Assembly: GCA_030390025.1 (NCBI GenBank)
Contig: CM059432.1
Location: 94,614,001 to 94,678,000 of the forward strand
Length of the DNA: 64,000 nt
From: Squalus acanthias
Taxonomy: Eukaryota
Reading direction: 5' to 3'
Shown in pieces: positions 2,827-61,200 of this stretch (its first letter is position 1; every line of letters begins with the position of its first letter). The position numbers were made by a program, and so were the translations under genes. The notes under the pieces are model-generated. The model saw nothing but the letters and a program-made list of their open reading frames with translations. It was not told the DNA's origin and made no database searches.

Positions 2827-3853
2827 TTACTTCTGTATGAGTGCACCGACGGGTCTCCAATCAAAAGGGTTTTGAGACCACCTGGCTGCTACGGATTGGG
2901 CTGTGAACAGATTTACACTACAAATTGTGTCGGCGTGCCATCTGAACAACAACTCAGCCGGGAAAGAACTCAACGTTTCCTTCTGCGGAAGGCGACTTAC
3001 CCATGAATCCCACCCAAAATACCTGGACGTCACCCTGGACAGGACGCTCACCTATTGGCCTCATCTCACCAACACCAGCCAAAAAGTAAAAACCAGAATG
3101 AACCTGGTCCGGAAACTCGCTAGAACGTCATGGGGGAGCACAGGCAGAACACTTCATACCGCAACAGTGGCCCTCGTCTACTCTGCTGCGGAATACTGCT
3201 CTGCCTCATGGTCCTGCAGCTGCCACACAAGGATCGTGGACATGCGGCTAAATGCCGCCCTGAGGATGGTGTCAAGGCGCTCAAATCCACTCCAACTGAG
3301 TGGCTCCCGGTGCTGTCCCGCATTGCCCCGCCTGCCATTCACCACGACGCCACCGTGCTGAGTGAGATCGAAAAAAATCATGAGCAACATCGACCTTTCC
3401 ATTCAAGAAGACTTGAAAAACCCACCATGAAAATCATGCCAGCCATTCCGGGAAAAGCAGCCAATATTCACGCAGCTGGTATCGATGCACTATCCAGATG
3501 GACAGAATCATGGGACGCATGCAACATAAAGAACCAACACCTCATCAGTGACCCAACAGCAGAGGTCCCTGGCTTCGATCTCACTCAAAAACAGTGGACA
3601 GCGCTCAACCGAATCCGCACAGGGCATGGACAATGCAGCTACCTGCTCCACAAGTGGAAGATGTGGGACGACCCAAAGTGCGACTGTGGCAATGAGCCCC
3701 AGACCATGGAACACATCACATCGACCTACCCACTAAGATCTGTTGCAGGAGGCACCTCACTTCTCCACTCGGCATCTCCGGAGGCCATCGAATGGAGAGC
3801 CAAACTAGACATCCCATTATAAGCTTTTCCCGTCATACGAAACAACAACAACT
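2827..3853 (+). mobile_element. Vingi/Ingi-group non-LTR retrotransposon, 3' part, frameshifted
   Basis: ORFs 2903-3361 and 3130-3822 give PKYLDVTLDRTLTY, ALVYSAAEYC, WLPVLSRIAPP and LNRIRTGHG...CDCG..QTMEHI with no RNase H in between; 3' end CATACGA followed by a (AAC)n tail. The 5' boundary is approximate. Confidence 0.75.
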
Positions 3854-4128: not shown

Positions 4129-6420
4129 CTGTCGGAGAATCTTACAGTGAAATATGACTTAGATATCCAAGCTCCAACAGTATCACACACAAATTTAAGT
4201 ATTTCACTGAGGTTATTTAATTTAATACTGTCAACTTTGATCTTTGATGTATCAAAATAGCCTCATGTTCTCTTTTATAAGGACGCCACTGAAAGCAAAA
4301 AAAAGATAAATATGCTATGGAAAAATTAAGCAGGAAAAAGTTGCGCCCCAGATTCGTAGGTTGTCAAGTGCTGCATTAACATGCAACATACATATATATA
4401 AGATTTCAAGCTGTGCTTTTTCTTCAGTTTCTAAACAAAATGCAGGGTCATATGTCTGACAGTGAAATCTGGATATTAGTTCACTCATGAGAAATAGCTG
4501 GGTTAGTATTGTGCTTTATGTAGTCTTAGAGTGTGAAATAAATTAAAACTAAATCAAAATATCCCCTTTCTAATCTACAATGTCTTGAACTGTTAATAAC
4601 TACTATGATTATAATATGGTGTAATGTCTTCTAATGGAAATTACTGGGTACTCTGCATTGAGGCACTCTGTGAGCATTCTTCAAGGAAAAGGAGATGCCT
4701 CATCTGCATGGGATCGTCAGGCCACTGCAGGCGCAGGCCCAGCTTCATGCCATCCCTGGAATGCCCCGGAAATCCTGCAGAATGTAAATGTGAAAACCTG
4801 AAGGAATCTGGTAAGAGAGCAGCACTATTGTGCCAAAAAGTAGGTGGCGTAACAGAGCAAACAAGTGTGGGTATTAAAAGCAATGGTGTGGGAATAAGAG
4901 GGTGCTGGATAAACTGTGAGGCTTCTCTTTTTTTTCTAGGGAACTTGGGAATTTACCCTAATTAGTCTCCCAACACCTCAAATTTAAAATTCTCATCTTG
5001 TGTTTAAATTTATTCATGTCCTTGCCCCTCCCTATTTCTGTAATCTTCTCCAGCCCCACAACCCCCACTCCCAAACACTCCATTCCTTTGACTTTGGTAA
5101 CAAAAATGTATGTCACAGTCAGAAGGCAGAAGAGTGTGGAGATTATCCTTAAAGGAAGTTCATCCTTGAGGTGCCACTAGACAGGATTCCAGCCGCCGCC
5201 CCCCCCTACCCCCCGCCCCCACCCCTAAAATTTGATTGTGTGAAGCGAGTAAGAGGAGTTAAATAACTGTGAGAGTTTAGTGCTAGTGGGAATTAAAGCT
5301 AACACAGGACCTCGGTTTAACATTTCATCCGAAAGATGGCATCTCCAAGAGTACCATACTGGAGTGTCAATGAGATTATCTGTTTAAGTCTCTGGAGTGA
5401 GGTTTGAACCCAAAAATCTTCTCACGTGGAAATGAGAGTGCCACCGTTGAGCCAAGGCTGGCACCATGGGAGTGGAGTAGCAGCCAATATAACACGCTTG
5501 TTCAAGAAGAGAGAAGGATAAACCAGGTAACTATTGACCAGTTAGTCTAATGTCAGTTCTGGGCAAACTTTTAGAATCCACATTTCATGTTAAAATTAGT
5601 GAGCCTTTAGAAATGCATGGATTAACCAAGGACAGCCAGCATGCTATCCTTGCTGTTTGCCAAACCCACAACTTTAGTGTTGTCAGCAAATTTCAACAGT
5701 ATGTTCCCTATATCCAAATCATCTATATAAACACCAAGAACAAAAGTGGACTCAGCACTGACTCCAGTGTGCAATCCTTCTCTATTCCAAACAACACCCA
5801 TGTACTCTAACTCTTGTTTCCTGTCCATTAACCACCTTTCTATCCATATTGCTAAGTTTTATCAAACAGGTTCTGAAAATTCTTATACACCACATCTACT
5901 GCATTCCCATTATCTATCTGCTGCATTCAGCCCGTGCAGCTTCTCATAGAATCATAGAAGTTTACGGCACAGAAGGAGGCCATTCGGCCCATTGTGTCTG
6001 TGCCAGCCGAAAAAGAGCTATCCAGCCTAGTTCCACTTTCCAGCTCTTGGTCATTAGCCCTGTAGGTTATGACACTTCAAGTGCATATCCAAGTACTTTT
6101 TAAATGCAATGAGGGTTTCTGCCTCTACCACCCTTTCAGGCAGTGAGTTCCAGACTCCCACCACACTCTGGGTGAATAAAGTTCTTCTCAACTCCCCTCT
6201 AATCCTTTACCAATTACTTTAAATCTATGCCCCTGGTTATGCCTCCTTCTCTGCTTCCTATTCACTCTACCTAGGCCCCTCATACTTTTATACACCTCAA
6301 TTGAGTCGCCCCCTCAGCCTCCTCTGTTCCAAAGAAAACAACCCCAGCCTATCCAATCTTTCCTCATAGCTAAAATTTTCCAGTCCTGGCAACATTCTTG
6401 TAAATCTCCTCTGTACCCTC

Positions 6421-6536
6421 GCGTTTCCCACATTACAACAGTGACTCCACTTCAAAAGTACTTCATTGGCTGTAAAACGCTTTGAGACGTCCAGTGGTTG
6501 TGAAAGGCGCTATATAAATGCAAGTCTTTCTTTCTT
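6421..6536 (+). mobile_element. DeuSINE (SacSINE1/AmnSINE1-like) 3' fragment
   Basis: CATTACAACAGTGACT...CTTCAAAAGTACTTCATTGGCTGTAAA...GAAAGGCGCTATATAAATGCAAG(TCTT)n, a sequence repeated many times in the window. Confidence 0.75.
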
Positions 6537-6733
6537 TACTTTCTCTAGTGCAATCACATCTTTCCTGTTTGTATGCAGTACTCTAGCTGTGGCCTAACTA
6601 GTATTTTATACAGTTCAAGTATAACCTCCCTGCTCTTATATTCTATGATGCGGAGATGCCGGTGTTGGACTGGGGTGGACAAAACTGAGAGGTCGCACAA
6701 CACCAGGTTATAGTCCAACAGTTTTATTTGAAA

Positions 6734-6775
6734 TCACAAGCTTTCGGAGCTATCGATTGCCCCTTCCTCAGGTGA
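6734..6775 (-). ncRNA. Minimal type I hammerhead ribozyme motif (mirror copy, sense to the host pre-mRNA)
   Basis: Exact reverse complement of 6873-6914. Confidence 0.7.
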
Positions 6776-6872
6776 AGTAAATAGATACAGAATCGCCAAA
6801 GCATATATAGATAGAGAACACATGCTTTGTTCTCTATCTATATATGCTTTGGCGATTCTGTATCTATTTACT

Positions 6873-6914
6873 TCACCTGAGGAAGGGGCAATCGATAGCT
6901 CCGAAAGCTTGTGA
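6873..6914 (+). ncRNA. Minimal type I hammerhead ribozyme motif
   Basis: UCAC-CUGAGGA-A-GGGGC(aaucgaua)GCUCC-GAA-AGCU-U-GUGA: stem I UCAC/GUGA, conserved core, stem II, palindromic stem III. Confidence 0.7.
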
Positions 6915-7692
6915 TTTCAAATAAAACTGTTGGACTATAACCTGGTGTTGTGCGACCTCTCAATCTTATATTCTATGCCTTGGCTAATAAAGGAAATGAC
7001 TCTGTAGGCCTTCTTAAGCCTCTCCCTCCAAATGACAGATGTGGCAGAAAGTGGGCAAGACAAGGCAGCCACTGCAGCATCGGATGTGGTGCAATAGTTG
7101 CACAGCCATCTCACTAACCAACACAAATAGGCAGAGGGCCACCTGACCCAGGAAACTCCCACAGAGACTCAGCAGCCAGCCACTTCACAGTGTTTAGGCC
7201 GTTTTTCCAGGGTTTCTGTGGCTCTTCTGCCAAGGTTACGGCAGACGAGCGGAAAAATCCTGAGGAGATTCACCCCCACCGATCGCACAGGCACTGAGCA
7301 CTTATAGCACAACAAATTGGGTCTGATTTATCACAAGCCCAGATTGAAAATCATGCGAAGTATATGGAATTCTGCACCTGAATTTTCAATACCTGCTCTC
7401 ATCACACAAAGCTCTGCACCAGAAGCTCTAATTCACTTCAATATTCAAAGCGTGGTCGCTCCAATTCTTCACAGTCTCACTATTACTCACTCAGAATTGT
7501 ATTCTATGGACCTAATTATACACTTTAATGTTCTATTTGGCTTTAAACTGCCATTATACAGTGTGGTGACAGCTTTCATGTTTAAGATTCTGTTCCCAAG
7601 TAACAGGCCTACATCCAATAAAAACAGAAAGATCTTTATTTTAGCATTAGATTTTGCTGAGTCTCTCGAAGTAGCTTTTCACTCCTACTTAC

Positions 7693-10822: not shown

Positions 10823-13392
10823 TAATGCCATTTTAGGACTCAACTGGGCGGAGCTTGTGCGATGCATGCTGCACGCAGTATCAGCTGATGGTTCAGCCAA
10901 AGAGGAGCCCAAAGTTAAGTACTTATTTATTTTTTGGGGATAGCATGAGCTGGGTACTCCTCCAGGCTGCTGTTGCATGGGTCTCACTCTCCAACACCAC
11001 CACAGCCCTCGCAAACAGAGCGCCCCCTCCAACCTATTGCGGTGGCCTGGAGCCGGCAGTGTGCGTTAGAACGCTCTTTTTCCACCCGCTGACCCTTTGT
11101 TAATGAGGCCCGGCCCTCAAAATGGACCGGGCTTCCTGTTAGCCGTCCGGAAACCACATGGAAGGAAAATCTGCCCCATTGTCTCACATGACGACTGGCC
11201 ACTTGGACACAGTAAAAGGGTGGCTCATGCTCATAGGACCAAAGCTCAACATGAATTAGTGTCTTCAGGAGAGGAGCCGGAAAACTGTATTCTATCCTCA
11301 CATGTTATTATAGTTCTAATATATTCTTTAACTGTTGACTCTATCACATTGAAATTCTGTTCATACTCTGTTTATTTGAAATAGTGTAAACAGATTCACC
11401 AGCAGTAGGAGTTTTTATATACAGCTTTCAATTTAACTGGTATTCTACATTGTTGTTGTTTGATTATAGCTATAAAAATTGTACTAATCCATCCTAGCAA
11501 ATTAGAATGAGCACTTTCTCTCTTTGATGGCTTCTAAAAGTCATTATATAATTCCTCACCGATCAGGTTTATTCATTCAGTGGACAAGATATATGGATAC
11601 AAATGTTACAATATAATCGCATCACATACCACATTCTGAAGATAGCCCGTCACATTCAAATCACAGGGAATAATGATCTTTTAGAGTTTCACTGTTTCTT
11701 CTAAATAAAATTGAGTTGTAACGGACAATTTATGAGAAGTTTATGGCATTTCAGCTCCAGCATTCTTGTGTGCATATAAAGTAATATCTGAGTGCTTTGT
11801 TACATCACAGATAAATCTTTTGAAAAGCGCTATCAACAAAGATAAGCACACACATCTACTCCAAATTGATGTGTTTTTGGGTAATCTCAATTCAGTTTCC
11901 AGTGCCAATCAGCACAAAATTGCAATCAAACGTTGCCACCAGCTAGCAATTATTAGGCACTCCTGTTCTGAAAGGCCACGAGAGGAGAATGCCTGAAATA
12001 GAAAAGCACATTGGTACAGGTGCTTCACTGAAAATGGAGATTAGAGTGGTGATTCCACAATCCAACACTACCAGCAGGGGAGTGCATCTAGGAAACTGTG
12101 AGCATACAAACCATAATTTTCACCCATTAAAATTAATATACGGAAAATCACAAACTATATGCATAAAATTTCCTAAGATGTACGTCCTGCAAGTTCCCCT
12201 TGAGCACCAAATCGCAGAATCACCCAGAAGCTCACAGCAGTTCTGCTTTTCATCCAGCTAATGCCATCTCTATCCTGGATGTATTTGGTGCTACAACCTT
12301 ACTCAAATTGGAAAATATGTTCCACTTAACAAATCATTCAATCCTTTGATGAGCACATGCCCAAGAATATGTTTATAGATTGCAAGCACAGCCACAGCAT
12401 GGGTTCATCACCTAAAAATAAGAAGGCCTTTAACTGTGCATCCTCTTAATGATAATTACACGGAAACAAAAGTACAATCAGCAAAATTAATCTGTTTAAT
12501 TTTCAGCTTGAAAATCACTATCATTATTATTCAGAATTCAGGGGCACCAAACTTTCTCTGAAACCCTTCTGATTAATCCGCTACAGGCTGCTCTATTATT
12601 AGTTGTTCCTTCATTTCTCCAACTCTAACTCTTCAATTTCTTCCTCCTTCATTCTATTATGTAGTACCCAAGGAGGTGCATTTCCACAGGGATTCTCCCT
12701 ATTGTCTGCTGTAACTTTGGTGGAAGAGTCACAGAAATCCCGGAAAGTTTTTTGGGGGTTTCTGTGGCTCTTCCACCAAAGTCATTGCTTTTCTGGATTT
12801 CCACAGCTCTTCAGCCGAAATTACGGCAGACGATCAGGAAAACCTCCGCAGCAATCCCCCCCCAACCCGCCGTCCACCTGTGTCTTTCCTTCTCCACCTC
12901 ATAATATTTTTTTCTGTAATTCTTGCACTGTTATCTGCTTCGGTATCCTTTTCTTGCTCATTCAGCACATTTTTTTATTCTCCAAGTCTAACCTGATTAA
13001 TGTTCTTTACTACTAATTTTGTTATTATTTCCTTCCAAATCTATTTGTTACTGAGCTTTCGAAATATGGTTTTGTGTTATGATTTATTGAGCAACTATGA
13101 TCATTTCACAGAAGAACTCTGTAATAACAATTATACAACTTAAATATAAATGCTTGCTTATATTCAGCATAAGAAACTCTGATCACTAAATACAGGTATG
13201 TTGAAAGTGTCATTTAGAATTGTGTTGCACTTTGCTGTATATTTCCTAGTTTTTCTGTTCTATCAATCGATTATAATTACCTGCCTACACACAGTACCCT
13301 ACTCGCTTTCCTTTCCTTTATAAAAAATGCAATCTTTTTCAGCAAACCCTGAGCCTCAGGTCCACACATTCCTATTTAGCCAGTGCAGATAA

Positions 13393-14889: not shown

Positions 14890-15285
14890 CCATCCTATCC
14901 AATCTTTCCTCATAGCTAAAATTCTCCAGTACTGCCAACATCCTCGTAAATCTCCTCTGTACCCTCTCTAGTGTAATCACATCTTTCCTGTAATGTGGTG
15001 ACCAGAACTGTACGCAGTACTCTAGCTCTGGCCTAACTAGTGTTTTATACAGTTCAAGAATAACCTCCCTGCTCTTATATTCTATGCCTCGGTTAATAAA
15101 GGAAAGTATCCCGTAAGCCTTCTTAACCACCTTATCTACTTGTCCTGCTACCTTCAGGGATCTGTGGGCATGCACTCCAAGGTCCCTCTGTTCCTCTACA
15201 CTTAGTATCCTTCCATTTAATATGTATTCCCTTGCCTTGTTAGTCCTCCTCAAATGCATGGTCTCACACTTCTACGGATTTAATT
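14890..15285 (-). mobile_element. CR1 LINE RT fragment
   Basis: ORF 14849-15259: RDLGVH, KAYGILSFINRGIEYKS, LVRPELEYCVQFWSP. Confidence 0.9.
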
Positions 15286-17655: not shown

Positions 17656-18639
17656 TCTGGACCAGAGCATGCAGTGGTGACATCGCAGTGCCTGCACTGG
17701 GGGAAGGAAGTAATTACAGCATGACATGTTTACAAAAGGTTAAGAGAAGGTGTGCGCAGATGTAAAGTTTTTAAATATATTATTAGTCAATCTCCCGTGG
17801 TGTTTCAAACAGTAAGTCAGAGAATATTGTCACTCTTCCAATTGTCTCTGCTGTCATCGTGGTGCTGCTTCTGTTCTTTTTTTTCCCTTTTGGGTGGGAG
17901 TTATTGGGTGGTATGGCGAGTAAAGAAGTGACATCAGGCTGTGGGTTGGATTAGGTGTGGGGGTTGCATAGAAAATGTGGTCCACAGCTGCTCCTTTCCC
18001 ATCCCGTGTCCTCTATCGCTTTACCTTCCTGCTACCCATTCCATTTCCTGCCACCCTCTCACTCCTATTACTACCCCACCTCTTTCACTTTCAACAACCC
18101 ACGCAAACTCTGTTTCCTCCCCTCCCCCTTGCTCTGTTGTCACTCACCACACGGTTAACCCTCCATCCATTCCCCCCGCACTGCGCTCACTCCTTCCAGT
18201 TTGGGAAAAGCCAAGTGCAATTAATGAGAAGCCAGAGGTTCCATCACCCTCAACCCATTTCCTCCCTCTGCTATCTTCATTTCTGATCTGCTTACCTTTG
18301 TTTGCTTTAAAATTCAATTTGTTTATTTTCCCCAAAAGTCTAATTATAATAAGGAAATAAACTAAGGGATTAAGCTGAAAAACAGGCATGGGGAGCGTGA
18401 AGCACCATCTGACCGCGCCCATTCAAAGTGGGCAGGTAGCATACAAAATTTGTGCTGCCTGCTCATTTACATGATTGGAGCGCTGAGCTCAGCGCTAAAC
18501 ACGCTACTGGTTGGCTTAGCACTCAAGAGAGGGACCAATATCGGGTGCAGTCTACGGGCCAATAAAATATTGCCTAGGCTCTCTGCACTGCTTAAAGGGG
18601 AGGTGCTTTGTTACAGAAGCTCCTCATTGTCACTCTGAA

Positions 18640-19300
18640 GCCAAGGCTCAACAGGGAAGAGAAAGGGCAAGGAGGTTCTCAGATGCAGCACTGGAGGCCT
18701 TGGTCCTGGGGCTGCACAGAAAACGACAGGTCCTCTACCCGCAGTGGGACAGGAGGCCTTCCAGGCAGCATGCCAAAAGGCAGTGGGAGGAGATAGCAGA
18801 AGCCGTCAGTGCGATGTGTGTTGCCCCCAGGACCTGGATCCAAAGCCGCAAGAAGTTTAATGACCTCACACGAGTGGTCAAGGTGAGTGAATTCATCTTC
18901 AAATGCCGTATCCCACCAACTGCACTACTAGCCTCACACACCGCTCAATGCACCACACCCCATCACTCACCTACCAACAATCTCTGGCAATCACGACTCA
19001 TACCTCACAATCATAGCTTCATCTCACCCTCACACACTTACCACTGTTGCAAGATTCCCACCCACATCTCACTCCTTGCACACACTGCCAGCTACTCAAC
19101 CATGATAGGCACATCACCCAAACACATTGCAGCACACTCACTGATAGACTTCCCTTTCTCTTGCAGGCCAAAGTGGCAGATGGGTGGAGGGGAAGCCCGT
19201 CTTCAGAACCTCACTGAGCTGGAGGAGACAGTGCTGGAGATCATTAGAGGAGCCACACTGAGGCCATGGTGAGTGGCGAGGTTGAAAGCATTGCTGATGA
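18640..19300 (+). pseudogene. Harbinger Myb/SANT-like DNA-binding protein gene, intron-containing and disrupted
   Basis: RFSDAALEALV...KRQWEEIAEAVSA...RTWIQSRKKFNDLTRVVK|gtgagt (18883), acceptor ttgcag at 19166, then a GGGEARLQNLTELEE remnant. Confidence 0.7.
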
Positions 19301-19999
19301 GGGTATGCTCATAACTAATCTTTCTTCTCACATCCCACTTCCCCCTCATCCCACAAACTCTTCTCACTTACGAGCTGCTGATGGTGTAAGCATGCACATT
19401 TTACTGATGCCATCGTGGCTGGGTTTACAAGTGTGGAAAGGGGCTTGCAGGGTCTCACAGCAATTCAGCAATCTGTGCTCCAACAGATGGCTAGGAATGC
19501 TGAGGCGTCGCCCTGGGGGAGTGGTAGTGGCTCCGTGGAGCAAGAACCTGCTGTCCTACTCCTACCCTTGCCACTCCGCCAGGGCCCTTGCTGCTGCCAG
19601 TCAGCCAACCAGCCCAGACAGCTCCATCTGTGCCAAGGTGGTGCAGTCTACAGCCGGGCCTTCTAGGCCCAGAGCTGCTCGAGGTTGTCCTGCAAGGCCA
19701 TCTGCAGTCTCCCCATGTAAAGGCAGCAGCCTTCCACCAGCCATGCTGCAGCCACTGGGGTAGCACTGCGTAAGAGCACTAGAGTAGGCAAAGGAACACA
19801 AAAGACAGACACTAAGGGAATGCACACGGGTTGGTTGACGTTTTTGTGTAGTTTTGCATTGATTCATTTATAAATTATGTTTGGAATGTTTGTTTTGTGG
19901 TGGCTCTCATTTCAGCTTTGTGCCCAAGAGCTATGATGTTCCGTGACAGAGGGATGGGAAGGTGGGAAAGTGGTGAGCAACAGGGAGCTAGGGTTTCAT

Positions 20000-21097
20000 T
20001 CAGGGGAACCGGATTCTGATGAGGCACTCATGGACAACCCGTCCGGAACGGGAATCTGCTGCCTGCCTCCTCCCTTCCTTCTCCTCCTCCTCCTCCTGAG
20101 GTGGTTGCAGAACACGTGGTGGCAAGGGCTGCATCCTCATGATGGCCAAGTTGTGGAGGATACAGCAGACCACCACAAAATGGGACACCACTCCAGCGTG
20201 GAGGGCTCCTCCCAAGCGGTCACAGCAGCGGAACTGTTGCTTTAGCACCCCGATGGTCTGCTCAATGACGTTCCTCATGGTAGCATGGTTCTCATTATAT
20301 GAGTGCTGGCCAAGAATGGTGGGGGTGCAGAGGGGAGTCAGCCGCCAGGTGTAGAGCAGATAGCCCTCGTCACCAAGCAGCTACACTCTAGTTCAACATG
20401 GAGGCTGGAAGATTGCTGGCACACTGGACTGGCGCAGGATGAAGGCATCATGACTGCTGCCAGGATACCGGGCAGTCACCATTATGATGTGCTGGGCGTG
20501 GTCGCACACCAACTGTACATTAAGTGAGTGGTAGCCTTTGAAGTTGCAGTACATCTCAGGATTGATATGCGGTGCCCGCAAAGTCACGTGTGTGCAGTCG
20601 ATTGCGCCCTGCACTATGGGGAAGCCCAATATCCTGGCAAAGCCACTTGCATGCCCCTCTCTATACAGAGAGAAGACAAGGAAGTCCCATCTCCTTGAGT
20701 ACACAGCCTCTGTGACCTCTTGGATGCAGCGATGGATGGCGAACTGGGAGATGTTAGCTTTGTATCCTGCGCCAGACTGGAAGGATCCGGTGGTGAAAAA
20801 ATTGAGGGCCACGGTGACCTTGAGGGCCACTGGGAGAGCCGTGGTCGCCTTCCTCCAAGGCTACAGGTCTGGTTCCAGGAGGTGGCAGAGTTCTGTGACC
20901 ACCTCCTTGGTGAAGCAGAACCTCCGAATACAGGTAGGAGAAGTGCTTTCGGAAGACCCTAGGTGGGTAAGGCCTCCTGCTGAGAGCCCTCCTGCCCATC
21001 CTCCTCCTCCCTCTGTGAGCAGCTTGTCTCTTTGCTGTCTCTGCTCCATCTCTCTGCCATACTCCAGCACGAGGGGGACTGCAAGTAGAGCCCCCAT
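20000..21097 (-). pseudogene. Harbinger (HARBI1-like) DDE transposase with frameshifts and stops
   Basis: LKVTVALNFFTTGSFQ, GAIDCTHV, KGYHSLNVQLVCD, ARYPGSSHDAFIL, VIEQTIGVLKQQFRC and CCILHNLA spread over several frames. Confidence 0.9.
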
Positions 21098-22952: not shown

Positions 22953-24738
22953 TGTGGTAACACAATACAGCTTCCTGTGACTCGAACTTTATTGCATCAC
23001 TTCCTGTGATTAGTCCAGGATAAATACTGGACTGATCAGTTGGATCCTGGAGAGGCATAGAGTAAGACCTCTTTTGTATGTAGCACCTTTTTAGTTGATT
23101 AAAGCTTACTTTAAGTTCACCACGCGTAAGGCTCATTCTTACGACAATAATTGGCCTCTTTTGGTTACACCATCCACTATCGACCTGGCAAGGAGAATGT
23201 GGCTCCGGATACCCTCACACGAGCATTCTGCTCCGCCATGGCACCCTCTACGCTCGTAGACATCCATGATGGGTTGTGTCATCCGGGCGTTACTCGCATG
23301 CTACACTTCGTGCGGTCCCGAAATCTCCCATTCTCTACCGGGGATGTAAAGAAGATGTGCTCGGACTGCAGAGTCTGTGCGGAATTGAAACCTCGGTTTT
23401 TCCGCCCCTCGGGTGGTATACTCATACATGCGACCCAGCCAATGCAACGGCTTAGCATCGATTTTAAGGGGCCGTTGCCCTCTTCAACTCGCAACACTTA
23501 TCTATTGACCATGGTCGATGAGTATTCCCGTTTTCCGTTTGCCTTTCCCTGCCCCAATATGCTGACGACCACGGTTATCAGCTGCCTTGAGCAGGTATTT
23601 GCTTTCTGTGGCATGGCATCCTATGTTCATTCGGATCGGGGCCCTTCTTTTATGTCAGGAGAACTCAAGGCCTATCTCTCGGAATGGGGTATTGCTGCCA
23701 GCAAAACAACGCCTTATCATCCGGTCGGGAATGGGCAAGTCGAGCGTTTTAACGCTATCATCTGGAATGCGGTACGTCTGGCTTTGAGATCTCGGGGCCT
23801 ACCCAACCAGCAATGGGAAGCAGTACTTCCAGACGCATTACACTCCACACGGTCCCTCCTTTCGACCGCCACAAATACGACGCCTCATGAACGGTTCTTC
23901 CGATTTCAGCGTCGCTCATCCTATGGGATATCTCTCCCGTCGTGGCTGACTGCACCGGGACCAGTGCTACTCCGAAGATATGTCCGGGCGTCTAAGAATG
24001 ACCCCCTGGTAGATGAGGTTGAGTTCACTGACGTCAACCCTACCTACGCCTATATTCGGTATCCTGACGGTCGGGAATCTACCGTGTCATTGCGGGATCT
24101 GGCTCCCTGCCCGCCGAAACATAGAGGGACACCAGGGGATGATATTGTACCAGGCACATCTCTGGGCTCGCCAGGTGCCTCTCATCACGATCTGGATCTG
24201 ACGCCGGCTGGTACCTCACTCCAGCGTGCCGACCTGGGGCAGACTGACTATGAGCCCGTCGGGGCTCGCACGCGCAGCCACGATCCACCCCGTACCGTAC
24301 GCTCGGAAACGGATCTGCCACAGCCCTGCCCGACACCCGTTCGGGCACCAGTACACAGTCAGGATCGTCCTGACCCCTCACAGAGCGGGCTGGATCACTC
24401 GGACTCTGGTCCACGGCCCGCGGCGGGTAAACGGGCTAGGGGCCCTCTACCGCTACGAGAACCCAAACGGGTGCGGCTCTCCCTCGTCCAGCGGCTACGA
24501 AATGGAGGGAGCATCCCGGCCTCCTAATCTTTTGGGGGGGAGAATGTAGTAACACAATACAGCTTCCTGTGACTCGAACTTTATTGCATCACTTCCTGTG
24601 ATTAGTCCAGGATAAATACTGGACTGATCAGTTGGATCCTGGAGAGGCATAGAGTAAGACCTCTTTTGTATGTAGCACCTTTTTAGTTGATTAAAGCTTA
24701 CTTTAAGTTCACCACGCGTAAGGCTCATTCTTACGACA
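22953..24738 (+). mobile_element. Ty3/Gypsy LTR element, internally deleted (integrase only)
   Basis: 194-bp LTRs at 22953-23146 and 24545-24738 (TG...CA, one visible mismatch); 5-bp TSD CAGTC; PPT GGGGGGGAGAA; inserted in a CR1 3' end. Confidence 0.92.
23151..24527 (+). CDS. Gypsy integrase ORF (RNase H tail, HHCC zinc finger, DDE core), uninterrupted
   Basis: YRPGKENVAPDTLTR; H-x4-H...C-x2-C; SIDFKGP, HSDRG and GQVER catalytic motifs. First in-frame ATG at 23238. Confidence 0.8.
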   Translation: MASFGYTIHYRPGKENVAPDTLTRAFCSAMAPSTLVDIHDGLCHPGVTRMLHFVRSRNLPFSTGDVKKMCSDCRVCAELKPRFFRPSGGILIHATQPMQRLSIDFKGPLPSSTRNTYLLTMVDEYSRFPFAFPCPNMLTTTVISCLEQVFAFCGMASYVHSDRGPSFMSGELKAYLSEWGIAASKTTPYHPVGNGQVERFNAIIWNAVRLALRSRGLPNQQWEAVLPDALHSTRSLLSTATNTTPHERFFRFQRRSSYGISLPSWLTAPGPVLLRRYVRASKNDPLVDEVEFTDVNPTYAYIRYPDGRESTVSLRDLAPCPPKHRGTPGDDIVPGTSLGSPGASHHDLDLTPAGTSLQRADLGQTDYEPVGARTRSHDPPRTVRSETDLPQPCPTPVRAPVHSQDRPDPSQSGLDHSDSGPRPAAGKRARGPLPLREPKRVRLSLVQRLRNGGSIPAS

Positions 24739-35005: not shown

Positions 35006-38000
35006 TGTGGCTGCCGCGAAGCACGAATTGAGGCCGAGTCAATATGTGGAGCACATGGCTTTTAATTACATACTCCTTGGCAAAATGGCTGCTACAACTT
35101 CTCTCTGCAAAACCCTACTGGTTGAGGGCGACGCCCGCTCTTTTTAAGTTCACACTGAGGGCGACGCCCGCTCCTTTTTTCATGCCTTAAAGGCAGCATG
35201 CGCCTTAAAGGCAAGGTGCCCGATTTATTGTCCACGGACGGAAAAGTGGATTGCGCCCGTTTAGGTGGCGATCCGCCACACAGCTCCCCCCAGAATCCGC
35301 TTAGGAGGTGTGGACGAGACGGTGCGGCGGTCTGATGGGCCGGCCGGAGCGACTCTTGTAGGATGCCGGTGGACGTGGAACGGCCGGGCGTGGAGCAGCC
35401 GGGTGAACTGGCTTGAGGGCAGGTCGGCCGCATGGCGGTGGACGAGCTACAGGGACCTGCTCACCGGGCTCCGAGTGTGCTGGCTTGAGTCGGTCAACCG
35501 ACACTTTTTCGGTCCTGTCGCCCACTTGCAGGGTGAAAAATTTGTCCCCAGCCTGTAGCATCTTGTAGGGCCCGTCGTACGGGGGTTGAAGGGGTCCGCG
35601 GTGGGCGTCGTGCCGGACGAAAACGAACCGTGCCTGGTGCAGGCTTAGTGGGACGTGTGAGGTGGATTCGCCGTGTCGGGCAATGGGCACCGGGGCGAAC
35701 TGTAGCGCCAGTGAGGCGAAGTCATGGCGTTGCTGGTCGGCTGACCAGGGTGTCGTGGCGGTGGACAGGAACTCGCCGGGTACGCGCAGCGGCTGACCGT
35801 ACACGAGCTCTGCTGCCGATGTGTGGAGGTCTTCTTTAACCGCGGTGCGCAGGCCGAGGAGGACCCACGGGAGTCGGTCGGTCCAGGCGCCGTCCTGGAG
35901 GCTGGCTCGAAGAGATGCCTTCAAGTATCTGTGGAACTGCTCACACAGTCCGTTGGCTTGGGGGTGGTACGCTGTGGTGCGGTGAATGGTCACCCCGAGA
36001 TTGCGTGCGACGGTGGTCCAGAGTTCAGAGGTAAATTGCGGACCTCTGTCCGACGTCATATCGGAGGGGACGCCGAACTGTGCGACCCAGGTGCTGACGA
36101 AGGCTCTGGCGATGTCGGCGGTGGTGGTAGAGATCAGTGGAATTGCCTCGGGCCAGCGCGTGGTGCGGTCAACGATCGTCAGCAAGTGCGTGTGGCCTTG
36201 CGACGGCGGCAGGGGCCCGCGATGTCCACGTGGATGTGGTCGAATCTATGCGAAGGGACGGTAAACTCCTCGAGGGGTGCTTTCGTGTGTTGCTGCAACT
36301 TGGCCCGTTGGCAGGCTAGGCAGGAGTTGGCCCAAGTACGCACATCCTTGCGAAGGCCGCGCCAGACAAAGCGGTTGGCTACCATTTTGATGGATGCGCG
36401 GGTGCCAGGGTGGGAGAGGTTGTGGAGAATCTCGAATACCCGGCGGTGCCAGGACGCTGGGACGACGGGCCGAGGTTGACATAGGGATATGTCGCACTTC
36501 ACCGTGACTGCGGTTGGGCCACAGGCGACATCGGCCAGGCGTAGCCCTGGTAGGTTGGTAGGTGCGGAGAGCAGATCAGGGTCGGTGATCTGGTCTGCTG
36601 CGAGTTGAGCGTAGTCGACTGCCAGGTGTGCGGCGTGGATGGTGGGGCGGGAGAGGCAGTCGGCTACCACATTGTCTCGGCCGGAGACGTGTTGGATGTC
36701 CGTGGTGAACTCGGACACTGCCGCGAGCTGGCGCTGCTGCCTGGCGGACCAGGGGTCGGTTGTCTTTGCTATTGCGAATGTCAGGGGTTTGTGGTCGACA
36801 AACGCAGTGAAGGGGTGGCCCTCCAGCAAAAACCGAAAATGGCGGACCGCCAGGAACTGCGCGAGGAGCTCACGGTCGAAGGTGCTGTACTTGACCTCTG
36901 GGGGGCGTAGTTGGCGGCTGAAGAAGGCAAGTGGTTGCCAGGCGCCGTCGACCCACTGCTCATACACGGCGCCGACCGCGTGGTCGGAGGCGTTCGTGGT
37001 GAGCGCTACCCTGGCATTGGGCCGTGGGTGCGCGAGCAGGGTGGCGTTGGCGAGCGCGGTCTTGGTGGAGTCGAAGGCGGCTGATGCGTCTGCCCCATTC
37101 GACCGCCATCTTGCCGCTCCTGCCCCAGAGGGCTTCATACAGGGGCTTCATGAGGGACGCCGCTTTGGGGGTGAAGCGGTTGTAGAAATTCACCATCCCG
37201 AGGAACTCCTGGAGGCCTTTATGGTGGTGGGACGGGGAAATTGTTGGACGGCCTGCACCTTGGTGGGCAGGGGAATGGCCCCAGCAAGGGTGATGTGGTG
37301 GCCAAGGAATTCGATCTTGTCCAGGCCGAACTGGCATTTGGCTGGGCTGAGGATGAGCCCGTGGTCGCTGAGGTGCCCGAACAGGATGCGAAGGTGTTCG
37401 AGGTGTTCCTGCTTGGAGGAACTGGCTACCAGGATGTCGTCCAGGTAGACAATCAGGAACTTCAGGTCCCGAAGGACCGAGTCCATGAGCCGTTGGAATG
37501 CCTGGGCCGCGTTTTTGAGGCCGAAGGGCATCCGCAGGAACTCGAAAAGGCAGAAGGCGGTGATTACGGCCATCTTGGGGACGTCCACGGGGTGGACGGG
37601 GACTTGGTGGTAGCCGCGCACCAGGTCGACCTTGGAAAAGACTGAGCGGCCGGCCAGTCTAGCCGAGAAGTCTTGGATGTGCGGCACGGGGTACCGATCA
37701 GGGGTGGTGGCGTCGTTGAGGCGGCGGTAATCCCCGCAGGGGCGCCAACCCCCGCCTGGTTTTGGGGCAATCTGGAGTGGGGAGGCCCAGGGACTGTTGG
37801 AGCGGCGGATGATGCCGAGCTGTTCCATGGTGGCAAACTCGGTCCGCCAGATCTCCAGTTTGGCCGGGTCCAGCCTGCGGGCATGGGCGTACACTGGGGG
37901 GCCTGTGGTGGGGATGAAGTGTTCCACCCCGTGTTTGGCGGCCTCCGCGGAGAAGGTCGGATTGGTAAGGGCCGGGAATTCGGCCAGCAGTGCCGAGTAG

Positions 38001-39427
38001 TCATCCGTGGCCCGGGCGTGGCACTGTGACGCCATGTCGGCGGGTTGACGGGGGGCCATGGCGCCCAGGATGGGGGACATGGTGTTCATGTCCACGAGGC
38101 GGTGTCGAGGGATGTCTACCAGTAGGCCGTGGACGCACAGGAAATCTGCGCCGATGAGAGGGGAGAGCACCTTGGCAGTGATGAACTCCCATCGGTAGCG
38201 GCGACCAGCGAGGTCGAGGGTGACTGTGCGGGTGCCGTACGTCCGGATGTCCGAGCCGTTAGCAGCAGCCAGCGCCGGTCCTCGTTTGCCCTTTTGGATG
38301 TCGAGGGCGGAGGCCGGGATGATGCTGTCCTGAGCTCCAGTGTCGCACAGGAACCGGCGGCCAGTTTTGTCATCCGTGACGTACAGCAGGGAGCCCGCGT
38401 GGCCCACGGCCATCGCGGGGGCTGGTACGGGGGCGGACTTGAAAGAGCAGGGAGGTGTGCACCGTTGTGCCCTGGCGCCGAACCGTGCGTGGTAGTAACA
38501 GTGGCCCGGGTTAGTGGGGCGCGAAGGCCCCGTGAGCCCGGTGGCTGGGCCTTGTGGCCGCGTGGTGGCTGGTGAGGGGCACGCCCAGGCAATGGCTGCC
38601 AGGTCCGGAGTGACGTCGCGGCTGGAGTGAGCGGACAGCAGCTTGTCGGCCTCATCGGCCAGGGCTTCCAGGTCTGTGAGGCCGGACGCCACGATCGCTG
38701 GGCGGATGCTGAGAGGTAGCTGGCGGATGAACAGCGTGCGGAAGAGGGATCTGGGTGGGCTCTCGTCGGTGAGGGAGAGCATGTGGGAGAGGAGGTCTGA
38801 CGGTGAGGCATCACCGAGGCCTGGAAGGTCGAGGAGGTGGCAGTTTCGCTGGTATGTCGAGGCCGTAAATTTTTTAAGGAGCGCGGCCTTAAGATGTGCA
38901 TACTTGCCCTCCTCTGGTGGGTTCTGCAGCGCTGTCCAGACCTTCGTAACTGTGGAGCTACCGAGTGATGTGACGAGGTAGTCGTACTTCGTCCCATCTG
39001 TGGTGATGTGTCGCAGCCGGAATCGGGACTCGGCTTGGAGGAACCAGGCTTCGGGCTGGTTTTCCCAAAACTCCGGCAGTTTCACGGAAACTGCGTTCGT
39101 GTCCGCCATTGCAGTGCTCGGAATACGTTCTGAGCGTCGAGGTCACCAATATTGTGGCTGCCGCGAAGCACGAATTGAGGCCGAGCCAATATGTGGAGCA
39201 CATGGCTTTTAATTACATACTCCTTGGCAAAATGGCTGCTACAACTTCTCTCTGCAAAACCCTACTGGTTGAGTACGACGCCCGCTCTTTTTAAGTTCAC
39301 ACTGAGGGCGACGCCCACTCCTTTTTTCATGCCTTAAAGGCAGCATGCGTCTTAAAGGCAAGGTGCCCGATTTATTGTCCACGGACGGAAAAGTGGATTG
39401 CGCCCGTTTAGGTGGCGATACGCCACA
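35006..39427 (-). mobile_element. Full-length Ty3/Gypsy LTR retrotransposon, CsRn1/Kabuki-like
   Basis: 275-bp LTRs at 39153-39427 (5') and 35006-35280 (3'), about 6 mismatches by eye; PBS TGGTGACCTCGACG (tRNA-Trp-like); PPT GGGGGGAGCTG; PR-RT-RH-IN order. Confidence 0.95.
35301..39109 (-). pseudogene. gag-pol polyprotein with three apparent frameshifts (~37220, ~37095, ~36212)
   Basis: Gag VKLPEFW...CYYHARFG...C; protease FLCDTGA; RT RPCGDYRRLN...YLDD; RNase H YSTFDRELLA; integrase HPG...C..C, TSDRGPQF, ANGLCEQ, GPY. Confidence 0.9.
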
Positions 39428-55254: not shown

Positions 55255-58200
55255 CAGAGGATCGAAGGGGGGAAAAGAGAGGGTCGGCGGGGGGGGGGGG
55301 GGGGCGGGGAGAGAGAGGATCGAAGGGGGGGGAAGAGAGAGGATCGAAGGTGGGAAGAGAGAGAGGATCGGGGGGGGGGAGAGAAAGGATCGAAGGGGGG
55401 GAGAGAGAGGATCGAAGGGGGGAAGAGAGAGAGGATCGAAGGGGGGAAGAGAGAGAGGATCGAAGGGGGGTGAAGAGAGAGGATCGAAGGGGGGGGAAGA
55501 GAGAGGATCGAAGGGGGGGAGAGAGAGAAGATCGAAGGAGGGATAGAGAGGATTGAAGGGGGAGAGAGAGAGGATCGAAGGAGGAGAGAGAGAGGATCGA
55601 AGGGGGAGAGAGAGAGGATCGAAGGAGGGAGAGAGAGAGGATCGAAGGAGGGAGAGAGAGGATCGAATAGGGAGAGAGAGGATCGAAGTAGGGAGAGAGA
55701 GGATCGAAGGAGGGAGAGAGAGGATCGAAGGAGGGAGAGAGAGGATCGAAGGAGGGAGAGAGAGGATCGAAGGGGGAGAGAGAGGATCGAAGGGGGAGAG
55801 AGAGAGGATCCAAGGGAAAGATAGAGGATCGAAGGGGGGGAGAGAGGATCGAAGGGGGAGAGAGGATCGAAGGGGGAGAGAGAGAGGATCGAAGGAGGGA
55901 GAGAGAGAGGATCGAAGGGGGAGAGAGAGAGGATCGAAGGGGGAGAGAGAGAGGATCGAAGGAGGGAGAGAGAGAGGATCGAAGGGGGAGAGAGAGATGA
56001 TCGAAGGGGGAGAGAGAGGATCGAAAGGGAAGAGGGAGGATCGAAGGGGAAGAGGGAGGATCGAAGGGGGAGAGAGAGAGGATCGAAGGGGAAGAGAGAG
56101 GATCGAAGGAGGGAGAGAGAGAGGATTGAAGGGGGAGAGAGAGGATCGAAGGGGAAGAGAGAGGATCGAAGGAGGGAGAGAGAGAGGATCGAAGGGGGAG
56201 AGAGAGAGGATCGAAGGGGGAGAGAGAGAGGATCGAAGGGGGAGAGAGAGAGGATCGAAGGGGGAGAGAGAGAGGATCGAAGGGGGAGAGAGAGGATCGA
56301 AGGGGAAGAGAGAGGATCAAAGGAGGGAGAGAGAGAGGATCGAAGGGGGAGAGAGAGGATCGAAGGGGGAGAGAGAGAGGATCGAAGGGGGAGAGAGAGA
56401 GGATCGAAGGGAGAGAGAGAGGATCGAAGGGAGAGAGAGAGGATCGAAGGAGGGAGAGGATCGAAGGAGGGAGAGGATAGAAGGAGGGAGAGGATAGAAG
56501 GAGGGAGAGGATAGAAGGAGGGAGAGAGAGAGGATCGAAGGAGGGAGAGAGGATCGAAGGGAGAGAGAGAGGATCGAGGGGGGAGAGAGAGGATCGAAGG
56601 GGGGAAGAGAGAGAGGATCGAAGGGAGAGAGAGAGGATTGAAGGAGGGAGAGGATAGAAGGAGGGAGAGAGAGAGGATCGAAGGGAGAGAGAGAGGATCG
56701 AAGGGAGAGAGAGAGGATCGAAGGGAGAGAGAGAGGTTCGAGGGGGGAGAGAGAGGATCGAAGGGTGAGAGGATCGAAGGAGGGAGAGAGAGGATCGAAC
56801 GGGGGGTGAGAGGATCGAAGGAGAGAGAGAGAGGATCGAAGGGGGGGAGAGAGGATCGAAGGAGGGAGAGAGAGAGGATTGAAGGAGAGGAGAGAGGATC
56901 GAAGGGGGAAAGAGAGAGGATCGAAGGGGGAAAGAGAGGATCGAAGGGGGAAAGAGAGGATCGAAGGGGGAAAGAGAGGATCGAAGGGGGAAAGAGAGGA
57001 TCGAAGGGGAAAAGAGAGAGAATCAAAGGAGAGGAGAGAGGATCGAAGGAGGAGGAGAGAGAGAATCGAAGGAGGGGGAGAGAGAGAATCGAAGGAGGAG
57101 GAGAGAGAGAATCGAAGGGAGAGAGAGAGAGGATCGAAAGAGGGGAAGAGAGGATCGAAGGGGGAGAGAGAGAGGATCGAAGGGGGAGGAGAGAGAGAAT
57201 CGAAGGGAGAGAGAGAGAGGATCGAAAGAGGGGAAGAGAGGATCGAAGGGGGAGAGAGAGAGGATCGAAGGGGGAGGAGAGAGAGGATCGAAGGGAGAGA
57301 GAGAGAGGATCGAAGGAGGGGAAGAGAGGATCGAAGGGGGAGAGAGAGGATCGAAGGGGGAAAGAGAGGATCGAAGGGGAAAAGAGAGAGAATCAAAGGA
57401 GAGGAGAGAGGATCGAAGGAGGAGGAGAGAGAGAATCGAAGGAGGGGGAGAGAGAGAATCGAAGGAGGAGGAGAGAGAGAATCGAAGGGAGAGAGAGAGA
57501 GGATCGAAAGAGGGGAAGAGAGGATCGAAGGGGGAGAGAGAGAGGATCGAAGGGGGAGGAGAGAGAGAATCGAAGGGAGAGAGAGAGAGGATCGAAAGAG
57601 GGGAAGAGAGGATCGAAGGGGGAGAGAGAGAGGATCGAAGGGGGAGGAGAGAGAGGATCGAAGGGAGAGAGAGAGAGGATCGAAGGAGGGGAAGAGAGGA
57701 TCGAAGGGGGAGAGAGAGAGGATCGAAGGGGGAGAGAGAGAGGATCGAAAGAGGGGAAGAGAGGATCGAAGGGGGAGAGAGAGAGGATCGAAAGAGGGGA
57801 AGAGAGGATCGAAGGGAGAGAGAGAGAGGATCGAAGGGGGAGAGAGAGAGGATCGAAGGGGGAGAGAGAGGATCGAAGGGGGAGAGAGAGAGGATCGAAG
57901 GGGGAGAGAGAGGATCGAAGGGGAAGAGAGAGGATCGAAGGGGGAGAGAGAGAGGATCGAAGGGAGAGAGAGAGGATCGAAGGGAGAGAGAGAGGATCGA
58001 AGGAGGGAGAGGATAGAAGGAGGGAGAGGATAGAAGGAGGGAGAGGATAGAAGGAGGGAGAGGATAGAAGGAGGGAGAGGATAGAAGGAGGGAGAGAGAG
58101 AGGATCGAAGGGAGAGAGAGAGGATCGAGGGGGGAGAGAGAGGATCGAAGGGGGGAAGAGAGAGAGGATCGAAGGGAGAGAGGATTGAAGGAGGGAGAGG

Positions 58201-61200
58201 ATAGAAGGAGGGAGAGAGAGAGGATCGAAGGGAGAGAGAGAGAGGATCGAAGGGGAAGAGAGAGGATCGAAGGAGGGAGAGAGAGAACCGAAGGGGGAAG
58301 AGAGAGAGGATCGAAGGGGGAGAGAGAGAGGATCGAAGGGGAAGAGAGAGGATCGAAGGAGGGAGAGAGAGAGGATCGAAGGGGGAGAGAGAGAGGATCG
58401 AAGGGGGAGAGAGAGAGGATCAAAGGGGGAGAGAGAGAGGATCGAAGGGGGAGAGAGAGAGGATCGAAGGGGGAGAGAGAGGATCGAAGGGGGAGAGAGA
58501 GGATCGAAGGGGAAGAGAGAGGATCAAAGGAGGGAGAGAGAGAGGATCGAAGGGGGAGAGAGAGGATCGAAGGGGGAGAGAGAGGATCGAAGGGGGAGAG
58601 AGAGAGGATCGAAGGGGAAGAGAGAGGATCAAAGGAGGGAGAGAGAGAGGATCGAAGGGGGAGAGAGAGGATCGAAGGGGGAGAGAGAGAGGATCGAAGG
58701 GGGAGAGAGAGGGGATCGAAGGGGAGGAAGAGAGAGGATCGAAGGAGGGAGAGAGAGAGGATCGAAAGAGGGGAAGAGAGGATCGAAGGGAGAGAGAGAG
58801 AGGATCGAAAGAGGGGAAGAGAGGATCGAAGGGGGAGAGAGAGAGGATCGAAAGAGGGGAAGAGAGGATCGAAGGGGGAGAGAGAGAGGATCGAAGGAGG
58901 AGGAGAGAGGATCGAAGGGGGGAGAGAGGATCGAAGGGGGAGAGAGAGAGGATCGAAAGAGGGGAAGAGAGGATCGAAGGGGGAGAGAGAGAGGATCGAA
59001 AGAGGGGAAGAGAGGATCGAAGGGAGAGAGAGAGAGGATCGAAGGGGGAGAGAGAGAGGATCGAAGGGGGAGAGAGAGGATCGAAGGGGGAGAGAGAGGA
59101 TCGAAGGGGGAGAGAGAGAGGATCGAAAGAGGGGAAGAGAGGATCGAAGGGAGAGAGAGAGATGATCGAAGGGGGAGAGAGAGGATCGAAGGGGGAGAGA
59201 GAGGATCGAAGGGGGAGAGAGAGAGGATCGAAAGAGGGGAGGAGAGGATCGAAGGGAGAGAGAGAGAGGATCGAAGGGGGAGAGAGAGGATCGAAGGGGG
59301 AGAGAGAGGATCGAAGGGGGAGAGAGAGTATCGAAGGGGGAGAGAGAGAGGATCGAAAGAGGGGAAGAGAGGATCGAAGGGAGAGAGAGAGATGATCGAA
59401 GGGGGAGAGAGAGGATCGAAGGGGGAGAGAGAGGATTGAAGGGAGAGAGAGAGGATTGAAGGAGGGAAAGAGGATCGAAGGAGGGATTGAGAGGATCGAA
59501 GGGGGAAGAGAGAGGATCGAAGGGGAAGAGGGAGGATCGAAGGGGAAGAGGGAGGATCGAAGGAGGGAGAGAGAGGATCGAAGGAGGGAGAGAGAGGATC
59601 GAAGGGGAAGAGAGAGGATCGAAGGGGGAGAGAGAGAGGATCGAAGGGGGAGAGAGAGAGGATCGAAGGAGGGAGAGAGAGGATCAAAGGAGGGAGAGAG
59701 AGGATCGAAGGAGGGAGAGAGAGGATCAAAGGAGGGAGAGAGAGGATCAAAGGAGGGAGAGAGAGAACCGAAGGGGGAAGAGAGAGAGGATCGAAGGGGG
59801 AGAGAGAGAGGATCGAAGGGGGAGAGAGAGAGGATCGAAGGGGGAGAGAGAGAGGATCGAAGGGGGAGAGAGAGAGGATCGAAGGCGGAGAGAGAGGATC
59901 GAAGGGGGAGAGAGAGAGGATCGAAGGCGGAGAGAGAGGATCGAAGGGGGAGAGAGAGAGGATCGAAGGGGGAAAGAGAGAATCGAAGGGGAAGAGAGAG
60001 AGAGGATCGAAGGGGGAGAGAGAGGATCGAAGGGGGAGAGAGAGGATCGAAGGGGGAGAGAGAGGATCAAAGGAGGGAGAGAGAGAGGATCGAAGGAGGA
60101 GGAGAGAGAGGATCGAAGGGGGAGAGAGAGGATCGAAGGGGGAGAGAGAGGATCGAAGGGGGAGAGAGAGGATCGAAGGGGGAGAGAGAGGATCGAAGGG
60201 AAAGAGAGAGGATCAAAGGAGGGAGAGAGAGAGGATCGAAGGGGGAGAGAGAGGATCGAAGGGGAAGAGAGAGGATCGAAGGGGGAGAGAGAGAGGATCG
60301 AAGGGAGAGAGAGAGGATCGAAGGGGGAGAGAGAGGATCGAAGGGGGAGAGAGAGGATCGAAGGGGAAGAGAGAGGATCAAAGGAGGGAGAGAGAGAGGA
60401 TCGAAGGGGGAGAGAGAGGATCGAAGGGGAAGAGAGAGGATCGAAGGGGGAGAGAGAGAGGATCGAAGGGGGAGAGAGAGAGGATCGAAGGGAGAGAGAG
60501 AGGATCGAAGGGAGAGAGAGGATCGAAGGGGGAGAGAGAGAGGATCGAAGGGAGAGAGAGAGGATCGAAGGGAGAGAGAGGATCGAAGGGGGAGAGAGAG
60601 AGGATCGAAGGGGGAGAGAGAGAGGATCGAAGGGGGAGAGAGAGGATCGAAGGGAGAGAGAGAGAGGATCGAAGGGGGAGAGAGGATCGAAGGGGAAGAG
60701 GGAGGATCGAAGGGGGAGAGAGAGGATCGAAGGGGGAGAGAGGATCGAAGGGGAAGAGGGAGGATCGAAGGGGGAGAGAGAGAGGATCGAAGGGGAAGAG
60801 AGAGGATCGAAGGGGGAGAGAGAGAGGATCGAAGGGGGAGAGAGAGAGGATCGAAGGGAGAGAGAGAGGATCGAAGGGAGAGAGAGAGGATCGAAGGAGG
60901 GAGAGGATAGAAGGAGGGAGAGGATAGAAGGAGGGAGAGGATAGAAGGAGGGAGAGAGAGAGGATCGAAGGGAGAGAGAGAGGATCGAAGGGGAAGAGAG
61001 AGGATCGAAGGAGGGAGAGAGAGAGGATCGAAGGGGGAGAGAGAGGATCGAAGGGGAAGAGAGAGGATCGAAGGAGGGAGAGAGAGAGGATCGAACGGGG
61101 AGAGAGAGAGGATCGAAGGAGGGAGAGAGAGAACCGAAGGGGGAAGAGAGAGAGGATCGAAGGGGGAGAGAGAGAGGATCGAAGGGGGAGAGAGAGAGGA

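Follow-up and report, generated by a model that had tools for sequence, protein, structure and literature searches.

A 316-bp insert in an intron of an L3MBTL-like gene of Squalus acanthias very probably (we would put this at around 85%) represents a single retrotransposition by an abundant shark family of Penelope-like elements that was truncated within the terminal repeat and left behind a head-to-head pair of copies with one tail. Several features that characterise EN+ Penelope-like element (PLE) insertions are found together at this site, namely a hammerhead-bearing terminal repeat, an inverted 5′-truncated copy, a one-sided tail, two fixed ends and a short target site duplication (TSD). 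The locus is a clean, ordinary example of an already described insertion pattern, and the doubly 5′-truncated copy was probably dead on arrival. An initial annotation, made from the sequence alone, had proposed a Penelope-like origin, and the structure of the insert (hammerhead repeat, inverted copy, tail and TSD) supports this. One locus matters little by itself; its value lies in recording, at the level of single bases, the completion of a PLE insertion, a step that is still open in the literature cited here.

Geometry of the insert and its genomic setting

The window analysed is a stretch of 64,000 nt. The 14-mer TCTTATATTCTATG occurs twice, at 6634-6647 and 6964-6977, and these two TSD copies, which are A/T at 11 of 14 positions (an AT-rich site), are separated by 316 bp. 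Between them lie two arms, 6686-6820 and 6828-6962, which are complementary at 135/135 positions and enclose a 7-nt apex loop (6821-6827). All of these dimensions had been given in the initial annotation, and they were reproduced to the base. The left side alone carries an extra 38-nt segment (6648-6685), previously left unexplained, which we identify as a Penelope ‘tail’ on the − strand. The family’s two end points lie 40-42 nt apart around this tail, and the left end of the insert extends 3 nt into the target duplication, such that 6645-6647 are shared between the left TSD copy and the family’s own end.

The left arm is a 5′-truncated pseudo-LTR copy whose sense strand (−) has the direction of the host gene; read on the − strand, it runs from the hammerhead through the 3′ part of the repeat and into the tail. 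The right arm is a tail-less pseudo-LTR copy with its sense on the + strand, where it shows the same order without the tail, so the two copies stand head to head. The family sequence of the right copy begins at 6818 and spans 145 nt. At the apex (6818-6830), the ACA, the 7-nt loop and the TGT are family sequence, and the two copies overlap there by 3 bp. A single additional A at 6963, between the end of the right arm and the right TSD copy, is probably untemplated. MITEs and fold-back DNA transposons have inverted repeats at both termini, and occur as many copies of uniform length that share ends and interior; the insert departs from the first of these features, as 38 nt are unpaired at its left end.

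The immediate insertion target is the decayed C-terminal region of a LINE ORF2 (6541-7017, − strand), which we take to be of the CR1 class. A paralogous LINE copy at 14965-15126, identical at 106/118 positions across the site, holds the 14-mer only once, and the duplication is therefore real. The peptide of this paralog matches LINE RT/APE-endonuclease proteins of sharks, rays, birds and turtles (141 of 483 candidates at E ≤ 1e-20). The 3′ end of an abundant SINE is seen within the host LINE, at 6421-6540.

The LINE itself lies in a 3,564-nt intron (4129-7692, − strand) that leads from an FCS zinc-finger exon to the next coding exon of the L3MBTL-like gene, and the insert sits 715 nt from the intron donor. 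Exons found by tblastn on the − strand at 7844-7692 and about 4139-3996, together with GT at 7692 and AG at 4129, bracket this interval and bear out the host-intron position claimed initially, with the refinement that an old LINE within the intron was the direct target. For a 54-residue exon at 7856-7695, 9/9 candidates were L3MBTL-like proteins of cartilaginous fishes; the closest such protein (92%), labelled Heptranchias perlo, maps to five − strand exons from 49.6 kb down to 0.45 kb.

Several further repeats were observed in the window. Upstream of where the coding exons of the L3MBTL-like gene begin to map lies an 8-kb tandem array (55306-63368) with about 383 copies of a 20-22-bp purine-rich unit, and the large intron of that gene holds gag-pol frames of the LTR-retrotransposon type (RVT_1, DUF7041) with long open stretches, at 35301-39142 (−). 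At 18520-20860, a Myb/SANT-like frame (+) and a DDE_Tnp_4 frame (−) face each other, presumably as the remnant of a Harbinger-type transposon. We also see an open frame of 458 aa with integrase core and zinc-binding domains at 23151-24527 (+), a LINE-like 3′ remnant that ends in short ACA repeats at 2876-3850 (+), with one frame that gave no Pfam match at E ≤ 0.01, and an imperfect 69-bp palindrome (84%) at 12714-12782 that is possibly a small DNA-transposon remnant.

The element family in public sequencing runs

Contigs of four public runs were aligned to positions 6500-6848 at 92% likeness. Runs X1 and X5 derive from two samples of organism A in two studies, X6 from organism B, and X19 again from organism A, where we guess the material to be RNA. 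The family is very abundant in the contigs of these runs, with 38,447 matched in X1, 27,861 in X5, 28,730 in X6 and 1,918 in X19, counts that include the SINE and LINE flank. Summed depth declines from the tail towards the apex, which is not a measure of copy number and may reflect differences between subfamilies. In X6 cover is absent at 6764-6848, a gap that was not taken as evidence of age.

The joints between family sequence and foreign flank point to two fixed ends. All 15 joints listed, of 210, fall either at 6644-6646 (nine) or at 6686 (six); they derive from other copies of the repeat and have sides shorter than 30 letters, and in 14 of the 15 the foreign flank is the T-rich tail of another SINE copy, a frequent landing site. 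A further 61 contigs of X5 depart at 6645 into dissimilar flanks (agreement 0.38). Our insert has these same two fixed ends, the one with the tail on its left and the one without, in mirror image, on its right. Contigs that pass from 6647 into LINE sequence (13 in X5 and 3 in X19) resemble paralogs rather than an empty allele of the locus. In one contig each of X1 (depth 795) and X5 (depth 152, with two letters between), the LINE site at 6646 is joined directly to the tail-less family end at 6686, and this joint may be an amplified second insertion at the same LINE position.

Could the hairpin be a fold-back artefact of assembly or library preparation, built on a single Penelope end? Among the pieces listed (32 of about 99,000) there is no contig across the apex, as such an artefact would have it. 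However, both outer ends coincide with the family’s two natural end points, the empty paralog confirms the 14-bp duplication, and on either side of the insert the host LINE picks up again in register. A chimera would not make these features, and we give an artefact hardly any credence.

The contigs also describe what lies beyond the apex. Among the 24 loose ends listed, of 558, we see ends behind 6820 in 10 contigs of X1 and 2 of X19, and ends before 6818 in 7 contigs of X5 and 1 of X19, and their letters are mutually consistent. This shows that other copies of the family extend beyond the apex, and that the loop and 6818-6820 are ordinary parent sequence. Within the arms, both copies carry G at position 6691, where A makes up 67-74% of the depth in X1, X5 and X19 and the G allele the remaining 26-33%. 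The three differences seen in the DNA runs recur in X19, where neither A>G nor T>C reaches 5%; the contigs pool the family, so this speaks neither for nor against editing.

On the − strand, 6720-6712 can pair with 6671-6663 to form a 9-bp stem (6663-6720) whose loop contains the tail-less end point. The enzyme of PAc, a Poseidon-type PLE of Anolis, is described as cutting both target strands and extending them from two start sites, one on either side of the tail (Frangieh et al. 2024, PMC11167929), and by analogy with PAc the 9-bp stem is a candidate start structure for reverse transcription. The 146-nt strand that holds the stem folds overall no better than shuffles (z 0.60).

These observations bear on the initial annotation’s view of the 316-bp hairpin as a non-autonomous unit, transcribed and then remobilised in trans by a Penelope enzyme. 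The perfect arms, the clean TSD and the abundance of the family would suit such a unit, as would the terminal repeat within the insert, pLTRs alone having been reported to mobilise sequence in trans (PMC3846280). However, the family runs on beyond the loop, the loop is parent sequence, and the ends of the insert are the usual ends of the family. Remobilisation is also unlikely because, in an RNA re-copied from the hairpin, half of the start stem (its 5′ strand) would be tied up in the duplex, and because RNA beyond the tail is absent: PAc is reported to require RNA beyond its start sites, in the form of the first 172 nt of its ORF (PMC11167929), whereas the insert ends at the tail. No second copy of the insert is present in the 64-kb window, which is a weak argument in the same direction. 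Overall, a mobile hairpin unit is improbable, and we retain the reading of a single truncated retrotransposition.

Searches further afield concerned the family ends and the tail, and none of them led to an RT/GIY-YIG reading frame. Four scans of metagenome, genome and viral contigs, in collections that are mostly non-animal and so uninformative here, gave 0 loci with the family-end pattern, and a protein word search with the tail reading frame gave no candidate. The one HMMER match to the tail frame among 1.84 billion proteins, a horsehair worm repeat protein, was rejected, its score being the sum of 15 weak stretches. We found no description of the shark family in the open literature; it may be catalogued in Repbase or Dfam.

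Hammerhead motifs and the fate of the insert in pre-mRNA

Each arm contains a minimal type I hammerhead motif (min-HHR) of 42 nt. The motif at 6734-6775 (−) is the only one in sense in the host pre-mRNA, with a predicted cut after 6738; that at 6873-6914 (+) is antisense to the host gene, with a predicted cut after 6910. Both comprise a 4-bp stem I, CUGAGGA followed by one extra A, a 5-bp stem II, GAAA, a palindromic AGCU and U17. The initial annotation had named a CUGAnGA...GAAA core with a 4-bp stem I and an AGCU stem III in each arm, and these elements are indeed present in both. Its assignment to the minimal type I class agrees with every listed feature of the published min-HHR consensus, i.e. 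CUGANGA-H, a stem II with G10.1-C11.1, GAAA, a palindromic N-N′, U-H and a stem I of at least 3 bp. A descriptor built from that consensus gave two matches in the window, both being the arm motifs, and 0 matches in 100 shuffles of the first 55 kb. The Rfam model search that had been proposed alongside the assignment returned no hammerhead family at E ≤ 10; the min-HHR, as defined in print, is a descriptor rather than an Rfam model (PMC4209133). A microRNA precursor was rejected, as none of the 12 Rfam matches comes near its gathering score and all of them reflect nothing but the long stem.

A sister subfamily is represented by 23 contigs of X1, 12 of X5 and 27 of X6 with a loose end behind 6750. 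Its hammerhead core is kept, and it departs from the insert only at N7, in loop II and in a single stem II pair, where A-U replaces G-U. In the insert, loop II (6890-6897 on +, and its mirror) contains a palindrome of 6 nt through which co-folding yields an alternative dimer, with a duplex of −6.3 kcal/mol; this palindrome is missing from the sister subfamily.

Two further signals were noted in the arms. A TATA-like TATATAT at 6839-6845 (+) stands 27 nt before an Inr-like TCAC and is mirrored at 6809-6803 on the − strand, and by analogy with PLEs described in print (PMC3846280) these pairs are possible outward-facing core promoters. A poly(A)-like AATAAA occurs in the sense arm at 6728-6723 (−, mirrored position). 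A sigma-70 scan was set aside as inapplicable to animal DNA.

Computed folding suggests that the hammerheads form in one context and not in the other. In one arm alone, the pairing probability is about 0.6 for stem I and about 0.96 for stem II, whereas in the complete insert, with a folding energy of −259.6 kcal/mol, both are 0.000. As the host gene lies on the − strand, the antisense arm would be transcribed first, and the sense arm would zip into the 135-bp duplex while emerging, with hammerhead folding blocked. The masking persists in the computation at 6/6 transcript lengths that have a scorable stem II (seven were tried), and the initial annotation’s proposal that a long duplex would mask the ribozyme is in line with this prediction. 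The two hammerheads are on opposite strands, and a cis dimer on a single RNA is never possible; self-cleavage of related hammerheads is described as weak, occurring as dimers or only with protein (PMC4209133, PMC11167929). With no hammerhead folding predicted, no partner in cis and weakly cleaving relatives, it is unlikely that the host intron would be cut by the hammerhead. It is plausible, by analogy, that the duplex would be edited or diced (by ADAR or Dicer) as a by-product, siRNAs that match inverted regions of Penelope copies having been reported from transformed Drosophila (PMC3681739).

Another explanation would be that the host has retained the insertion to regulate either the L3MBTL-like gene or the transposon family, with the insertion acting as a source of siRNA, a switchable intronic ribozyme or a poly(A) site. 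The strength of the perfect 135-bp duplex predicted in the pre-mRNA, the AATAAA in the sense arm and the Drosophila siRNAs from inverted Penelope copies would all be compatible with such a role. However, the perfect identity of the arms is explained by youth or by conversion between them, the insertion lies within another dead repeat, and nothing shows cross-species conservation of the insertion or an effect on expression, so that we regard a retained regulatory role as very improbable.

As to the age of the insertion, the arms and the duplication together give 149 paired positions with 0 differences. By the rule of three this bounds divergence at about 2%, while the host LINE and its paralog diverge by 10%; the insertion is therefore younger than the host LINE. 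The youth that had been proposed at the outset thus stands as relative youth, and conversion between the arms could hide some of the age.

A proposed route of insertion and the closest known systems

The junctions, together with the biochemistry of PAc, suggest how such a structure could have arisen. A staggered cut of the target would leave two 14-nt 3′ overhangs, and both 3′ ends would prime reverse transcription. The + strand end would anneal to the RNA at the distal start site through a 3-nt match, giving rise to a tail-bearing cDNA, while the − strand end, after one extra base, would prime at the proximal start site and copy 145 nt. This tail-less cDNA would then snap back, its last 3 nt pairing 7 nt upstream in a natural 3-bp stem, and would go on to copy itself. 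Finally, the self-copied strand would move onto the tail-bearing cDNA and join it, giving a head-to-head pair with one tail. The loop stands in the cDNA orientation on the − strand, and therefore belongs to the tail-less cDNA. The tail must come from elsewhere than the tail-less cDNA, and any model therefore requires two primed ends.

For the joining step we lean towards the snap-back of the second cDNA, and consider the annealing of two long cDNAs at the 3-bp overlap to be the less probable route, though one with a substantial chance. Snap-back is the simplest account of the symmetry of the apex and of the identity of the arms, including the G that they share at 6691, and its junction uses the ACA at the mirror position, one of 7 ACA in 6648-6820. 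Its stem is marginal on its own, at +0.3 kcal/mol as DNA, and the shared G lends snap-back weak support because it is a common allele; for these two reasons the annealing of two cDNAs retains an appreciable probability. Self-priming on an antisense template was inferred from such junctions in 2013 (PMC3846280), and the first-strand cDNA is an antisense template of that kind. Self-annealing of 3′ ends has also been proposed for L1-linked inversions (bioRxiv 10.1101/2024.12.14.628481); among the literature matches listed, none gave a snap-back model for PLEs.

The two primed ends, the 3-nt priming match and the 3-bp apex overlap could be counted across thousands of copies in a shark genome. Should small RNAs specific to the apex, or a bias in intronic orientation, be found, leftovers of this kind would offer the family a means of limiting itself. 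More broadly, and as a speculation that we think unlikely to hold, short fold-back Penelope insertions might steadily supply shark pre-mRNAs with perfect duplexes of 100-200 bp. The antisense-first order would silence their own ribozyme and poly(A)-like signal, such that they would be tolerated in introns that purge single sense copies; they would supply siRNA against the whole family; and their apexes would record a cDNA snap-back that explains head-to-head Penelope repeats with no need for the antisense RNA template of the 2013 proposal.

Among known systems, non-LTR retrozymes are described as non-coding units of about 300 bp with a type I hammerhead, derived from PLE termini, with one cartilaginous fish among their hosts (Li, Clavereau and Pollet, bioRxiv 10.64898/2026.07.22.740005). 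The insert resembles them in being non-coding, about 300 bp long, equipped with a type I hammerhead and derived from a PLE terminus. However, retrozymes as described there are head-to-tail tandems with their hammerheads on one strand, whereas the insert is head to head; with one motif per strand and no tandem repeat at the locus, membership of this class was rejected.

Dual min-HHRs on opposite strands, with about 100-700 bp between them, have been described (Cervera and De la Pena 2014, PMC4209133), and the shark motif shares with the metazoan PLE min-HHRs of that study the CUGANGA with one extra base, the G10.1-C11.1 pair and the palindromic 15.2-16.2. Its short stem I, UCAC/GUGA, is as in the lamprey motif of the same source. 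The species rows of that article that we consulted do not include a shark, and the 6-nt loop II palindrome is a feature of the shark motif.

The likeness to PAc is one of structure, not of sequence comparison. As reported for PAc, two end points bracket the tail near a stem-loop downstream of the hammerhead, the target is AT-rich, and the geometry requires extension of both target strands. The ORF of PAc is described as starting at stem II, whereas the shark hammerhead core has no ATG.

A further close match is to the complex insertions of EN-bearing PLEs, which are reported to combine a pLTR, an adjacent inverted 5′-truncated copy, a one-sided tail and a TSD (Arkhipova et al. 2013, PMC3846280; Craig et al. 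2021, PMC8557442), with a tail of 30-40 bp at one end described for PLEs in several sources (PMC8557442, PMC11167929, PMC3846280). Unlike those insertions as described, the shark insert has no ORF, and both of its copies stop within the terminal repeat. Its junction overlap of 3 bp is shorter than the 15 bp of Pen2a_Av, and its 14-bp TSD is longer than the 8-10 bp of the rotifer examples (PMC3846280). In common with the EN+ insertions, the shark insert has a head-to-head copy overlapping a direct copy, a tail in the 30-40-bp range at one end, a short TSD, an AT-rich target, and TATA-like and Inr-like motifs.
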